Assembly: GCA_048941285.1 (NCBI GenBank)
Contig: JBHLNS010000060.1
Coordinates: forward strand, 1-17,825
DNA length: 17,825 bases
Direction of reading: 5' to 3'
From: Promethearchaeota archaeon
Lineage (GTDB): Archaea > Asgardarchaeota > Lokiarchaeia > Sigyniarchaeales > SOKP01
A model generated the notes under the pieces. The model was not told the origin of the DNA, made no database searches, and saw nothing but the letters and a program-made list of their open reading frames with translations. Every line of letters starts with the position of its first letter. The stretch's first letter is position 1. Positions 1 to 17,825 of the stretch are shown one piece after another. Made by a program: the position numbers and the translations under genes.

Positions 1-422
1 ATCTCATTGCAGTCTTCTTTTTTAATTTGTAAATTTTCGGAGTTTACTAAATCGAGCTTATTTCCAACAAGTACACTGCTAAAATTTTCAATTATTTTTT
101 CAATCTCATCTTTCCAGTATCTAAGATTTAAAAGGGTATTTTTATCTGTTAAATCAAATACATAAACTATCCCTTTTGCTCCTTTATAAAATTCCTGCCT
201 AACCCATTTAAAACGCATCTGACCAGCTAAATCCCATATTTGTAAAGTTATTAGATTACTAATGTTAGGAATTTTGACCCGTTTTACAAAAAAATTAGAA
301 CCTATTGTAGATGCTACATTCGGGGCAAACCTTCTTTCTAAATATTGATGGAGTAGTGTTGTTTTGCCAATTGCATAATCTCCAACTATACAAATTTTGA
401 AAAGAGAAAGTTTTAAACCCAT
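1..422 (-). CDS. Rab-like small GTPase (Ras superfamily), 3' end truncated by window edge
   Basis: Manual translation from ATG at 422-420: MGLKLSLFKICIVGDYAIGKTTLLHQYLERRFAPNVASTIGSNFFVKRV...TLQIWDLAGQMRFKWVRQEFYKGAKGIVYVFDLT...VLVGNKLDL. It has G1 GxxxxGKT, G2 Thr (STIG), G3 WDLAGQ and G4 NKLD. No stop before position 1. Not in the supplied ORF track. Confidence 0.95.
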   Translation of the reverse strand, partial: MGLKLSLFKICIVGDYAIGKTTLLHQYLERRFAPNVASTIGSNFFVKRVKIPNISNLITLQIWDLAGQMRFKWVRQEFYKGAKGIVYVFDLTDKNTLLNLRYWKDEIEKIIENFSSVLVGNKLDLVNSENLQIKKEDCNE

Positions 423-6054: not shown

Positions 6055-6672
6055 TTAGTTTTTCTTAAATCTAGGGATAAACATTGGAACTCTTTTCATG
6101 TAATCCTCGTACTCTTTACCGAATTCTTTAATCAATTCTCTCTCTTCCTTCCAGGAAATTAAAAAGTTTAATAAAATAATTATTGGAGTCGTTATTAAAG
6201 AAAAAATAGCAGATAAAAGAATTGTAATTCCAATATGCGCTACGACTCCTCCAAAATATTGAGGATGCCTAATTACAGAATATAAACCTCTTGAAATGAC
6301 TTTTTCGGGTCTATGTGTTTCAGCTACCTTTAAAGTAACTTTCTTCACACCTCCAATTCCAAACCATATACCTATTATGATAAAGGGAATTGATAGAATA
6401 AGATGTAGTATTGATATTGATATATTAATGACTGGAATATTAAATGTTAAGTTTTCAAATATGGGTATAACAAATCTAGGTTGAGGTGAAAGCCAAACAC
6501 CAAACCAGAATAAAAAAAAACCCCATCCAGAAATGAAACTTAAAATAATACCTATTTTAGTTCCTTTCTCCTTTCCATATTTCTGATGTAATCTTAAATG
6601 TTCTACAGATAAAAAATGAAATGGTATCATAAAACACATACCCAAAATTGATATTATAAACAAGAGACACAT
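6055..6672 (-). CDS. isoprenylcysteine carboxyl methyltransferase (ICMT/Ste14/PEMT-like) family membrane methyltransferase
   Basis: Multi-TM protein with the family signatures GLYSVIRHPQY and EERELIKEFGKEYEDYMKRVPMFIP. Confidence 0.9.
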   Translation of the reverse strand: MCLLFIISILGMCFMIPFHFLSVEHLRLHQKYGKEKGTKIGIILSFISGWGFFLFWFGVWLSPQPRFVIPIFENLTFNIPVINISISILHLILSIPFIIIGIWFGIGGVKKVTLKVAETHRPEKVISRGLYSVIRHPQYFGGVVAHIGITILLSAIFSLITTPIIILLNFLISWKEERELIKEFGKEYEDYMKRVPMFIPRFKKN

Positions 6673-13376: not shown

Positions 13377-13958
13377 ATGGAAAATGAAGTAAGCGATGAA
13401 GTATTTTGGAAAAAGAAAATCAAAGAGTATTTTAAGACTTTTATTGTTATAATTATTGCTGGAGTATGCTTAATTATAGGTGCAGTTTTAGTATTCTTTT
13501 GGTTTATGTACACATCTCCTATCGGTGGACAGGGTTTATGGACTCTTGATCAATGGACGTTAATGCATCTAGTATGCTTTTGTATTCTACTCATTTTATG
13601 GGAATTATTATTTGTAGGATTACCTGCAGCATTATTCTTTGGTGTAGGAGGATATATCTGGTGGAGTAGATTATCAGAAGAAAAAAAGCAAGAATTTAGG
13701 GACAGAGAAAAGAAGAAAACACATAGAGCCAGAAATGCAGGTGGAGGTGGAGGTGGTACTGCTTTTATATTCATAGCCTATTGTATTTACATGGCGATCC
13801 TAGGTTATTATGATGTACCATTTGGCACTTATCGATATAGTTTTTGGATCGAACATTGGTTCTTTACAATAATGTGGATAATAATTGTATTAGGAATCCC
13901 TGCTTGTCTTATTCTACTTATTGTCTATCTCACAGTATGGCGTAAGAGAGCAAAATAA
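13377..13958 (+). CDS. four-TM membrane protein of unknown function with poly-Gly hinge
   Basis: Four hydrophobic segments, a central charged loop ending in NAGGGGGG, and a W-x5-G[LI]PA motif present twice. Confidence 0.85.
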   Translation: MENEVSDEVFWKKKIKEYFKTFIVIIIAGVCLIIGAVLVFFWFMYTSPIGGQGLWTLDQWTLMHLVCFCILLILWELLFVGLPAALFFGVGGYIWWSRLSEEKKQEFRDREKKKTHRARNAGGGGGGTAFIFIAYCIYMAILGYYDVPFGTYRYSFWIEHWFFTIMWIIIVLGIPACLILLIVYLTVWRKRAK

Positions 13959-14037: not shown

Positions 14038-16308
14038 TTATAGAAATTGCATTTTAGGCTGAAATACTTTCTTTTTCAATAAATGGAGAATTATTTCAGC
14101 TTCTTTTGCATAAAAACCTTTTCTAATAGAAAGCAGGTCAGTTACTGTGAAATAGTCTAAATTTTTCTTTTTCATTATTGTTTTGGCCCGATTGACCATC
14201 GACTTTTCGTCAGATTTTAATTTAACATCTTGTTTAACTGTCTGTAATGGATATATCAATGAAGTTTGCAAATGTTGCTCAAGCAAATCTCTTATTCCTG
14301 TGAAAGCGTCAATATTTCCTTTGAAATTTTCGATTTGATTCCCATATTTGTGATCAATATCATATGACAGATCTTTTATTGATTCTAAAAAATCTTGAGA
14401 AGGACTTTCTTTCATGATCAGTAAAATCCTGAAGCTTTTAAATTCTGACATTAAAACTTTAGATTTCTGATATTCCAACTTTATTGTTTGAGATTGCTCA
14501 TCAGCACCTGTAAGCTCAATTCCAAAAGTCCGAATTGCCTCCAAAAAGCCTGTAATTAGTGTCGCATCTATAGTCTTACTTGCCAAAATTTGTTCATAAA
14601 CATTTAATCCTGAATTTTTATGGATTATTATGAAATACTCAAGATTTAAAACATCCATATATTTATTGAATATAGTTTGTCTGTGTGCTTCATGCTTCCT
14701 TTTATTATTTTTAACCAATTTATATGTTGTAAAACTAAAAACTGAGATAAATGCAATTACTCCAACTATGGTAACTATTAGCATTGGATCTAAAACAAAT
14801 GGAATAATAATTTCGAAAGCTTGAGAAATGACTCCTGCCGCAGTTCTATTATGCCAAAAGATATAAGCTGTATAAGTTCCCTCATAAGGATGGTCTGAAA
14901 GTTGATAACTTAGCAATAAATCTTCAGTTTCAATTGTGTGTAATACAATTATATAGTCGGATTGAGCCGGAAAACCTAAAGGATTTATTAATCTAAAAGT
15001 TAGATTCCCAGGAAATATTGGCGCAATAACAGAGAATAGGATTTCTTGACCGCGACCGAATTCAGTTGTAGGCACATTTAAAGATAGACCTATATTTGGA
15101 GAATTTGCCGTTATCCTCCAATCTGCTCCCTCAATTATAGTGCTGTTTGATATAAAAACAAGACGATTTGTTGTATTTATAATAATTTGCGTTGATATAT
15201 CCTCCCAGCCACCGCCTGAATTCCTAAAGACTCTAACATTATACCAACCTTGAGGATATTTAAATTTGAATGAATAATTACTATAACATCTCTGAATATC
15301 AGGTTCAAAAGACCAAATATTTGCTAGATTCTCTTGTATTAACACATTTCCTGTTGTACTCAAATAATTTTGTATTTTAATATGATAACTTAGATTAAAT
15401 AAAAGTGATATTGAACGATTATTGATAACTGAAACATGAAAGATATCACTATTAGGAGATATTTTTTTTTTCAAAATGATGGTTCCATTTTCACTTATTT
15501 GATATAGAGAATCATCAATATTTAATGTCATATTTACTTCTTCCGGGCTGAATGATCTATCAACTCTTTGAATTATTTTGTATAATAAAGGTTCTCCTGT
15601 TGTTTCAACATTCCATTTTGACCCATCATATTTAGATGTATGTAGATTTTCATGAATAGAACTAGAGTCATTAAAATACCAATAATAAGCAGTTTTTTCA
15701 GAAGGTATCAATAGGGATCCATTTATCGTAAGATAGTACTGCCCCGGAGCAAGAGAAATCTCATTTTCAAAAGTTTGAAGATACCAATTAGGAATGGTAG
15801 AAATATTTATTAAAGTTGATCTCATAACGTTTCTAGTAGGTGTATGGGTAAGCCCATTATAACCCGTTAATTGGAAATATATTGGGATAGTTGGGGGGAT
15901 TACACTTCTAAAACCTAAAATGTAGGCACCAAATAGAATTGTTGGTTCTGTAATATTGAGTTGTACACCCCAACCTTTTAATCCATTGCCAATTGTTATT
16001 TTAGAACTACCATCACTAGAATCCTCAACAGTTTTTAGTTCCTTTCCTAGCTTAATATTTGTGAAGTTCATCTCAATATTAGTGATATTCCAGGACGCAG
16101 ATGGTAATTGAATATCAATCGAACTTAAATTTTCCTTATAGCTTAACTGTTCTGAAAATTCAGTAATTCTAAAATCTGAATAAGAATTCAGGGTATCATG
16201 ATTATTTTGAGCATATGAGGAATGAACCAAACTGAACAGGTTCAGAAATAGAAATGATAAAATTAATAATAAAGCAATAAAGTAATCTTTTTGAACCCTA
16301 ACTTTCAT
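14038..16308 (-). CDS. single-pass membrane protein: signal peptide, sequon-rich beta ectodomain, TM helix, cytoplasmic longin/roadblock-like domain
   Basis: N-terminal hydrophobic signal ending in SYA, about 470 aa of beta-rich ectodomain, then TM PMLIVTIVGVIAFISVFSFTTY followed by KLVKNNKRK. The cytoplasmic part YFIIIHKNSGLNVYEQ...DATLITGFLEAIRTFGIEL...KLEYQKSKVLMSEFKSFRILLIM fits a beta-beta-alpha-beta-beta-beta-alpha longin-like pattern. Confidence 0.85.
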   Translation of the reverse strand: MKVRVQKDYFIALLLILSFLFLNLFSLVHSSYAQNNHDTLNSYSDFRITEFSEQLSYKENLSSIDIQLPSASWNITNIEMNFTNIKLGKELKTVEDSSDGSSKITIGNGLKGWGVQLNITEPTILFGAYILGFRSVIPPTIPIYFQLTGYNGLTHTPTRNVMRSTLINISTIPNWYLQTFENEISLAPGQYYLTINGSLLIPSEKTAYYWYFNDSSSIHENLHTSKYDGSKWNVETTGEPLLYKIIQRVDRSFSPEEVNMTLNIDDSLYQISENGTIILKKKISPNSDIFHVSVINNRSISLLFNLSYHIKIQNYLSTTGNVLIQENLANIWSFEPDIQRCYSNYSFKFKYPQGWYNVRVFRNSGGGWEDISTQIIINTTNRLVFISNSTIIEGADWRITANSPNIGLSLNVPTTEFGRGQEILFSVIAPIFPGNLTFRLINPLGFPAQSDYIIVLHTIETEDLLLSYQLSDHPYEGTYTAYIFWHNRTAAGVISQAFEIIIPFVLDPMLIVTIVGVIAFISVFSFTTYKLVKNNKRKHEAHRQTIFNKYMDVLNLEYFIIIHKNSGLNVYEQILASKTIDATLITGFLEAIRTFGIELTGADEQSQTIKLEYQKSKVLMSEFKSFRILLIMKESPSQDFLESIKDLSYDIDHKYGNQIENFKGNIDAFTGIRDLLEQHLQTSLIYPLQTVKQDVKLKSDEKSMVNRAKTIMKKKNLDYFTVTDLLSIRKGFYAKEAEIILHLLKKKVFQPKMQFL

Positions 16309-16512
16309 ATATTATAACCAATTGTATTAAAAAAAAAATAAAACCATATTATTAAGTAATCTAGTAATGGTATAGTTATTTAAATCTTAATTAGATTCTC
16401 TAAAATTGTTCTAGAGTTCAGAACAATTAAAATATATTAAAATTTCTATTGACTAAACTCTTAATTCAAAATTTAAATCAATTAAGTTTTAAGATAAAGG
16501 ACTCAAATTGTC

Positions 16513-17825
16513 TCAATTTTTAAAGTTAAATTCTTGTATTTGAAATATATTTCTTTCAATCATGTCAAGTATGCTTTCTATATCTTTGGGGGTGCATTCT
16601 TTTTCCGGTAATAACGATATCATATAGAAATAACTTGTCTTATTTACTTTCATATAATTAATAGCTCTATTGATCAATGTTCTATCGTTTGGACTTATTC
16701 TAATTTTGTCCAACTTTTCTATTTTAGCCAATGTCATTGGATAAGTAAGAGAAGTATTAAGATGAATTTTAAGCAATTTTTCTATTGATTTGAAAGGTTT
16801 AATATCTCCTACAAAATTATCAACTAAATTCCCAAAATCTTTATAAATGTCATAGGCTAAATCTTCAAGTGAATATAAGAAATTTGAGGAGGGGGGTTCC
16901 TTCATGATTAAAATAATTCTTAAATTTACAAATTCAGTCATGATTATAATGGAATCTTTATATTCCAACTTTATGGTTTGCGAGCTATCTTCAACTTTAA
17001 TCAATTCAATTCCAAATGAATGAATTGCCTGTAAGAATCCCGAAATCATCGCAGCATCAATTTCTTTTTTTGAAAATTGTTGTTGATAAAAATTTAATCC
17101 AGATTTTTTTTCTGATACAATAATATAATCCAAATTCAGAACATCCATACATTTTTTATAGAGTTTTTCACCCTCTTCTATCTTTCTAATCTTATATTTC
17201 TTAATTGTTCGATAAGATATCATTCCTACTGTAATTCCTACAATGACAATTGTAATACTTATTACAATCCAGACGGGATGAATAGTAAAGGGAGGTGGAG
17301 GAATTTCAAATACTTGAGATTTAACACCTGCATCTGTATAACTATTCCAATAGATTATGATTGTATAAGAGCCTGCTCGCGAATTTGATGGGATCATATA
17401 TGTAAAAAGAGTTTCTGAGGATACAACCTCTCGAACCTCCACAGCTTCATCATATCCAAATCCTAATGAATTAATGAGGTAGAATGTTAAATAGCCATCT
17501 ATGATCGGGGCAATAACTGAAAATTGTAATTCTTGTTCAGGTTTCCATACTGATTCTGGTAGATTTATATTAAAATCTAAATTTGGTGAATTTACCATAA
17601 TTTCCCATTCAGCACTTTCAATTATTATGTGATCAGGAAATGTAATAATCTTGTTATATGTATCAAATATTATGCTTGAAGTGATATTTTCCCAGGAAAT
17701 TCCTAATTTTCTATTTATAGTAAAATTGTTCCAACTATCTGGATAATTAAATTGGACTAAATGATAATTAAAAGCTCTAATAAACTCAGGGTTTAATGTC
17801 CAGCTGTTTGTAAGACCTCCATTAA
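16513..17825 (-). CDS. tandem paralog of the 756-aa single-pass membrane/longin-like protein, 5' end beyond window
   Basis: The frame stays open from 17598 to the window edge (NGGLTNSWTLNPEFIRAFNYHLVQFNYPDSWNNFTINRKLGISWENITSSIIFDTYNKIITFPDHIIIESAEWEIMVNSPN). This aligns with the neighbour's NIWSFEPDIQRCYSNYSFKFKYPQGWYNVRVFRNSGGGWEDISTQIIINTTNRLVFISNSTIIEGADWRITANSPN, so the ATG at 17598 is internal. The TM and cytoplasmic domain are shared (MDVLNL, KxSGLN, GFLxAIxxFGIEL, SQTIKLEY). Confidence 0.88.
   Translation of the reverse strand, partial: NGGLTNSWTLNPEFIRAFNYHLVQFNYPDSWNNFTINRKLGISWENITSSIIFDTYNKIITFPDHIIIESAEWEIMVNSPNLDFNINLPESVWKPEQELQFSVIAPIIDGYLTFYLINSLGFGYDEAVEVREVVSSETLFTYMIPSNSRAGSYTIIIYWNSYTDAGVKSQVFEIPPPPFTIHPVWIVISITIVIVGITVGMISYRTIKKYKIRKIEEGEKLYKKCMDVLNLDYIIVSEKKSGLNFYQQQFSKKEIDAAMISGFLQAIHSFGIELIKVEDSSQTIKLEYKDSIIIMTEFVNLRIILIMKEPPSSNFLYSLEDLAYDIYKDFGNLVDNFVGDIKPFKSIEKLLKIHLNTSLTYPMTLAKIEKLDKIRISPNDRTLINRAINYMKVNKTSYFYMISLLPEKECTPKDIESILDMIERNIFQIQEFNFKN

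Follow-up and report, generated by a model that had tools for sequence, protein, structure and literature searches.

The 17,825-bp contig JBHLNS010000060.1 of a Promethearchaeota archaeon ends in two adjacent genes, the downstream gene B and the upstream gene A, which raise the question of whether a longin domain can form the cytoplasmic tail of a surface receptor in Asgard archaea and, if so, which partner inside the cell such a tail would serve. A reading made from the DNA alone, hereafter the original prediction, had proposed a tandem of receptors with longin tails that give transmembrane input to Asgard small GTPases. The window analyzed here is the whole contig (G+C content 24-32%), and the 5' end of gene A is therefore open at the contig end. 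We find that the two genes belong to a real, large and widespread Asgard family of type I surface glycoproteins that is unannotated and missing from current domain databases, and that the longin domain of the tail holds at the level of the fold, where it is well supported by prediction.

Layout and predicted fold of the tandem proteins

Both open reading frames (ORFs) lie on the minus strand with a spacing of 204 nt, and their proteins share 39% identity over 428 aa (BLASTP, E 1e-103), far beyond chance. The adjacent same-strand paralogs of the original prediction were thus recovered, and the motifs it had listed (MDVLNL, SGLN, GFLxAI..FGIEL, SQTIKLEY, ILIMKE.PS and HL.TSL.YP) were located in both translations (Table 1). 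The missing N-terminal part of gene A was searched for across the assembly and was not found; full-length upstream copies in relatives are ~760 aa long with a signal peptide present. The contig of the closest relative (L011, tail 91% identical) also breaks inside the upstream paralog, at its position 1, as the window does at 17825, which points to collapse or splitting of assemblies at these repeated genes.

By sequence rules, gene B reads as a type I (N-out, C-in), single-pass, N-glycosylated surface protein, because it has a signal peptide, one membrane helix with K/R residues after it, and N-x-S/T sequons confined to its N-terminal part. Hydropathy marks the signal-like stretch (7-33) plus one further strong segment (509-529), and an 'AQ' consensus stands at the position of the signal-peptide end in an alignment of 50 relatives. 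Sixteen sequons fall within residues 60-487 and none within residues 533-756; the ectodomain would be expected to hold 7.2, and 0 of 2000 shuffles reached 16. The 49 full-length relatives have 3.65 sequons per 100 aa on the outside vs 0.57 on the inside. For the complete gene B, the proposed receptor-like order of ectodomain, single transmembrane helix and cytoplasmic part is therefore supported by hydropathy and sequon placement.

The AlphaFold2 model of the ectodomain (residues 34-506, 50 relatives) contains strands only, with a predicted local distance difference test score (pLDDT) of 92.2, and is made up of a lectin-like jelly roll, a further beta-sandwich and a membrane-proximal macroglobulin/immunoglobulin (Ig)-like domain. 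Weak Pfam MG2/MG4 matches directly before the membrane helix, seen in 5 of 41 relatives, are consistent with this model. Searched as a whole with Foldseek, the ectodomain gave multi-domain matches of low template modelling (TM) score to Eph ectodomains, phage baseplate proteins and S-layer proteins. These matches of a predicted fold point to an extracellular binding or coat protein, and to nothing more specific.

For the cytoplasmic tail of gene B, the AlphaFold2 model (residues 533-756, 42 relatives) has a pLDDT of 90.7 and a predicted TM score of 0.84. The secondary structure assigned by DSSP past the N-terminal helix, in the numbering of the tail model (E24-31, E37-42, H50-67, E75-81, E84-91, E94-100, H106-128, H140-153), follows the order b-b-a-b-b-b-a-a with a five-stranded sheet, and bears out at the level of the fold the longin call that had been made from the secondary-structure pattern. 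Among the matches listed, the closest structural neighbours of the predicted tail are solved longin domains, and adaptor sigma and mu subunits stand among the top fold matches; Roadblock chains match at lower Z (8.2-6.8). The tail too has an N-terminal helix (H2-23), the juxtamembrane helix, which may or may not pack on the sheet as the N-terminal helix of a Roadblock (order a-b-b-a-b-b-b) does. A PAS or GAF fold, named beforehand as the outcome that would speak against a longin, is absent among the fold matches listed. Past the longin domain, the model ends in three helices and a strand that together resemble a winged helix, a unit overlooked by the original prediction and basic in composition (13 K/R vs 6 D/E).

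Two other candidates were dropped, both being absent from the fold matches listed: profilin as an alternative fold of the tail, and kinship with OST1/ribophorin I, an Asgard type I protein with a cytoplasmic domain according to the available part of PMC11417166.

Table 1. Features of the tandem pair and of the genes next to it (window coordinates)
Feature	Position	Strand	Remarks
Gene B (downstream copy)	14038..16308	-	complete ORF, 756 aa; predicted type I surface glycoprotein with longin + winged-helix tail
Signal peptide, gene B residues 1-33	16210..16308	-	basic n-region, hydrophobic core, SYA/Q cleavage motif (SYA before, Q after); hydropathy peak windows 7-33
Ectodomain, gene B residues 34-506	14791..16209	-	all-beta AlphaFold2 model; carries all 16 N-x-S/T sequons
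Lectin-like jelly-roll domain (predicted), gene B residues ~88-250	15559..16047	-	
Macroglobulin/Ig-like domain next to membrane (predicted), gene B residues ~405-506	14791..15096	-	
Transmembrane helix, gene B residues 509-529	14722..14784	-	hydropathy; followed by K530, K533, K536, R537, K538
Juxtamembrane helix (predicted), gene B residues 534-555	14644..14709	-	continues into first longin strand; DSSP H2-23; block pLDDT 95-96
Longin-fold domain (predicted), gene B residues 556-685	14254..14643	-	b-b-a-b-b-b-a-a
C-terminal winged-helix-like unit (predicted), gene B residues 699-751	14056..14214	-	
Gene A (upstream copy), same family	16513..17823	-	ORF, 436 aa visible, 5' end cut by contig end
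Transmembrane helix, gene A residues ~185-204	17212..17271	-	hydropathy windows 177-207 and sequence
Longin + winged-helix tail (predicted), gene A residues 208-436	16516..17202	-	aligned with gene B tail
193-aa neighbour protein	13377..13958	+	convergent with gene B; four hydrophobic segments, Gly-rich GGGGGG loop
Gelsolin-repeat protein, 280 aa	12355-13197	+	gelsolin E 7e-6
Coiled-coil protein, 149 aa	11655-12104	-	Cnn_1N-like, E 4e-7

Orthogroups, spread and reuse of the tail module

The size of the array, which the original prediction had proposed to survey, turned out to be a recurrent pair: same-strand copies stand in tandem in 13 of 20 related loci, two of the 13 having a third copy. 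These 20 loci, all from Asgard metagenome-assembled genomes, were fetched with a single protein as the query, which reaches close relatives only, so that the synteny counts given here come from one family-level clade. The upstream copies of relatives are 58-80% identical to the gene A tail and 41-50% identical to the gene B tail, and the downstream copies show the converse, being closer to the gene B tail than to the neighbouring upstream type. In a maximum-likelihood tree of 39 tails, the upstream copies form one group (support 94/89), the downstream copies form two well-supported clades that are joined in 56% of bootstrap trees, and the third copies derive from the upstream type by a late duplication. 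Tail identities and tree assign gene A to the 'up' and gene B to the 'down' orthogroup. As read from these sequences, A and B are two old orthogroups retained in tandem: since copies in the same position are more alike than neighbours, and the tree agrees, the duplication predates these genomes and both copies were retained. This retention is our main argument, by inference, for an A-B pair that is non-redundant and possibly heterodimeric.

The claim that the cytoplasmic half is conserved and the ectodomain diverged stood in part. Between the paralog types, the longin part is 43-51% identical, as claimed; the winged helix, at 29-39%, does not follow the claim, and the ectodomain parts, at 31-65% (mostly 33-47%), are still homologous over their whole length. 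At middle distances the longin part is the best conserved (58-74% vs 33-64% for the ectodomain parts), and at large distances the identity of all parts drops to about 30-35%.

Beyond the clade of the tandem loci, a near-length search returned 214 homologs of the gene B protein. All of the 120 that were listed are 'hypothetical' or unnamed and without a Pfam domain, and almost every one that is labelled by source comes from an Asgard lineage. When cluster representatives were searched exhaustively, 736 proteins scored at E<=1e-3; among the matches listed, which span 122-1887 aa and whose shorter members are in many cases probably fragments, the module closes the protein or lies close to its C-terminal end. 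Of the 201 genomes searched in the phylum, 145 have the tail, among them 72 of the 86 of good quality; by genus it occurs in 47 of 59, and a single genome can have as many as 11 matches.

The genome that holds the window has 10 matches to the tail module. By hydropathy, five of them have a membrane segment directly before the module (three of these also with an N-terminal signal-like stretch, the other two being cut at contig ends), and five are without one and apparently soluble. In the soluble relatives P0235 and P0239, the module terminates proteins with PCI, DDRGK and UFL1-like winged-helix arrays and a beta-propeller. In two soluble paralogs of the own genome (~458 aa; C36, L033:5572-6942, and C73, L034:3026-4399), the longin module stands close to the N-terminus and a weak MIT-like stretch, which does not reach the cut-off (E 3e-3 and 7e-5), forms the C-terminal end, a hint of a link to ESCRT-III-type partners.

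Candidate roles of the tail

The reading that we favor, with a probability that we place a little below an even chance, takes A and B as type I surface glycoproteins whose ectodomain binds outside the cell and whose longin and winged-helix tail is a docking platform for a cytoplasmic partner. The ligand of the ectodomain would most plausibly be a glycan or a surface, and the membrane-fixed tail would dock the partner and keep it at the membrane. The A and B tails would probably pair, as longin domains commonly do, and a small GTPase would be one candidate partner, by analogy only. The reuse of the module next to PCI, DDRGK and UFL1-like parts fits a protein-docking role, and the conservation of the tail at middle distances argues for a specific partner over a passive anchor.

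Several points weigh against this docking platform. First, the longin assignment is one of predicted structure only, and the sequence-level searches were silent: Pfam (E<=1) and NCBIfam gave no match on either protein, Pfam on the tail region of 42 relatives gave scattered matches only and no longin/roadblock family, and the family profile had no significant match in PDB sequences, its two rows lying at chance level with E above 1. A search of the own genome with PF13774 (Longin) gave no match either, which says little because 14 control genomes likewise gave none; one distant soluble paralog scores on this family at E 0.0034 (17.7 bits, below the 26.2 cut-off). PF03259 (Roadblock) does not match the proteins, and none of its 16 matches in the own genome falls at a paralog place. 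Second, a common fold does not establish a common function, and the docking partner of the tail is purely hypothetical. Third, the A-B pairing is drawn from conserved adjacency alone, and with a gap of 204 nt the two genes may or may not be co-transcribed.

Among the alternatives, the one put forward by the original prediction survives best, and we consider it unlikely. Here the A and B longin tails would form a heterodimeric platform like TRAPPC1/C4, Mon1-Ccz1 or Ragulator, which would recruit a small GTPase to the cell membrane, or regulate it there, once the ectodomain has bound its ligand. Possible partners are at hand, as the own genome (3.55 Mb) has 80 Ras-family matches besides the 16 Roadblock matches, and a Ras-family GTPase gene is present in the window itself (3..422, minus strand, cut by the contig start; Ras E 2.4e-33), 13.6 kb from the pair with 13 genes between. 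The survey of GTPase synteny that had been proposed gave this platform no support. With the window Ras protein as query, a Ras-like gene was found in the flanks (up to 10 kb) of only 1 of the 20 related loci, and the paralog places of the own genome show no enrichment of nearby GTPase genes: one of the 10 has such a gene within 3 kb, where random placement gives a rate of 0.088 (P 0.60). An Arf-like gene ~3 kb from the C17 paralog was missed by the Ras query and would not alter this lack of enrichment. A GTPase domain is fused to none of the 41 family members scanned, though longin-GTPase fusions exist in Asgard archaea according to the available parts of PMC10933270 and bioRxiv 10.1101/2020.10.19.343400. 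Moreover, many longin domains have no action on GTPases, those of SNAREs and of the adaptor subunits sigma and mu among them. The missing synteny counts for little as evidence against the platform, because Asgard GTPase genes are generally not in longin/roadblock operons, as reported for MK-D1 in the available part of Tran et al. 2024 (PMC10933270). We hold a link between the tails and GTPases as a hypothesis by analogy, lowered but not removed by the negatives from gene order and fusion.

A more far-reaching form of this idea, which we think more doubtful than the platform itself, would make A and B a heterodimeric type I receptor in which binding of an external ligand, possibly a sulfated glycan, by the lectin-like ectodomains causes the paired longin tails to bring a small GTPase to the cell membrane and switch it. 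The sulfated glycan is named because sulfatase genes lie beside the pair in relatives. If true, receptor-to-GTPase and Ragulator-type nutrient signalling would have a prokaryotic forerunner in the A/B receptor, which would also explain how Asgard GTPases without lipid anchors reach membranes.

The sulfatase context, together with the basic winged helix, also motivates a second alternative, a membrane-tethered gene regulator, which we regard as distinctly improbable. The ectodomain would sense a substrate, e.g. a sulfated glycan; the winged helix would bind DNA directly or after release of the tail and control nearby catabolic genes, and the longin would be a dimerization or switch domain. Upstream DNA is present at 12 of the tandem loci, and 10 of these have an aryl- or alkyl-sulfatase within ~6 kb, often accompanied by an FMN reductase and an MFS transporter (Pfam-confirmed at six loci, the remainder by tblastn); in relatives the pair stands directly downstream of genes for an arylsulfatase (PF00884), an MBL-type alkylsulfatase, an NADPH-FMN reductase and an MFS transporter (L013:1229-5758, L018:2183-5765, L023:3060-5872 and others). 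Sensors are often encoded beside the genes they control. However, a sulfatase flanks 0 of 7 more distant single-copy loci, so that the link may be plain synteny among close kin, and it is not visible in the window because the contig ends inside the upstream gene. No close sulfatase orthologs were found in the own genome, the best matches (26% and 32% identity) being on other contigs. The winged helix itself gives a divided answer. That of a soluble paralog weakly matches TrmB, MarR_2 and HTH_47, and TrmB occurs in 52% of the Atlas neighbour-cluster members, a lead only, with a score of just 0.81; yet the winged helix of the window proteins has no Pfam match even at E<=1, and the helix at the recognition position, by our reading of sequence and consensus, starts K-E/D-A-E, which is unusual for DNA contact. 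In addition, the winged helices of PCI, DDRGK and UFL1 type to which the module is joined are protein-binding kinds, and a family that reaches 11 matches in one genome, with ectodomains of >1000 aa, looks unlike regulators.

A structural or adhesive coat, likewise improbable in our view, is the third alternative. The ectodomain would be a glycoprotein envelope or adhesin, and the tail a non-signalling anchor attached to cytoskeletal, ESCRT-type or sorting machinery. The heavy sequon load would suit such a coat, as would the Ig/macroglobulin and lectin-like folds, which also match S-layer and adhesin entries, and the many paralogs per genome with variable and often giant ectodomains. For the inner attachment, the gelsolin-domain and coiled-coil genes immediately downstream of the pair, an order kept in five close relatives, and the MIT-like ends of the two soluble paralogs could be cited, and longin folds also sort cargo in the adaptor sigma and mu subunits. 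On the other side, the gelsolin gene is no longer adjacent in L016 and L017 and has moved by 5 kb in L023, and the tail is the best-conserved part at middle distances, where a passive anchor is the less expected. A more constant neighbour is the 193-aa protein, which lies directly downstream of the pair in 11 of the 20 related loci, even where other neighbours differ; Pfam gave no family above the cut-off for it.

Relation to known systems and other genes of the window

How the many small GTPases and longin/roadblock proteins of Asgard archaea are tied to membranes, and which inputs they receive, is an open question in work on how the endomembrane system of eukaryotes arose. In the family described here, which most of the searched genomes of the phylum encode, a predicted glycosylated ectodomain is coupled directly to a cytoplasmic longin, and its expressible proteins would allow a test for an outside-to-inside link. 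Even with a partner other than a GTPase, it probably explains part of the unexplained surface material of these cells.

The family differs from the systems it most resembles. Eukaryotic longins (the N-terminal domains of Sec22b, VAMP7 and Ykt6; TRAPPC1/C2/C4; the N-terminal domains of adaptor sigma/mu; SRX of SR-alpha) match the tail in predicted fold, with no sequence-level match. Longin SNAREs have a C-terminal helix anchor and no ectodomain, whereas here the longin lies between the membrane helix of a type I glycoprotein and a winged helix, with no SNARE motif. Ragulator, in which roadblock dimers anchored by LAMTOR1 meet the Rag GTPases, is lipid-anchored, of soluble build and of roadblock topology, and has a proven GTPase partner; in the present family a membrane helix that carries an ectodomain serves as anchor, the predicted topology is that of a longin, and a GTPase partner is only hypothetical. 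The ToxR/CadC-type one-component sensors and the RsgI anti-sigma factors are likewise single-pass proteins with a binding domain outside and a winged helix or regulator-binding domain inside, encoded beside catabolic genes, and RsgI proteins bear carbohydrate-binding ectodomains. Their cytoplasmic part, however, is N-terminal, of opposite polarity, and they lack a longin domain.

Soluble Asgard longin and roadblock proteins (Lokiarchaeota Roadblock-Longin, PDB 8yqg/8yqk; MK-D1 Roadblock, 7yh1 and 9jue) are small and cytosolic or fused to GTPases, in contrast to the membrane-spanning build and predicted glycosylated ectodomain seen here. Fusions of the domain are known: within the available parts of the sources, 130 Roadblock-superfamily clusters of Asgard orthologous genes (asCOGs) with many fusions are reported (bioRxiv 10.1101/2020.10.19.343400), Lokiarchaeum is credited with 41 longin-like domains (PMC4917890), and longin domains are joined to Ig-like, TPR, HTH/PCI, Vps28-C, adaptin-appendage or two-component domains (Liu et al., bioRxiv 10.1101/2020.10.19.343400; Makarova et al. 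2024, PMC10936438), those with Vps28-C, Ig-like and HTH/PCI domains being given by Makarova et al. These fusions resemble our relatives P0235 and P0239 with their PCI, DDRGK and UFL1-like parts. The word 'transmembrane' does not occur in the available part of Tran et al. 2024. No description of the order signal peptide, ectodomain, membrane helix and longin was found in the literature searched, parts of which were available to us, and the asCOG supplementary tables might already list the family. As far as that literature goes, the longin domain stands here in a new, receptor-like setting.

Other genes were seen in passing. The window carries an ICMT/PEMT-family membrane methyltransferase gene (6055-6672, minus strand), and a second one (L038:5196-5873) has a soluble paralog with the longin module next to it, together with a MarR-like protein and a Ras GTPase, which may be chance. 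An ICMT/PEMT gene beside a Ras gene is curious, as the GTPases of these organisms are said to lack prenylation. At 855-2924 on the plus strand, the window encodes a 689-aa Eco57I/TaqI-like N6-adenine methyltransferase, which by its domains is of the type IIG restriction-modification kind.

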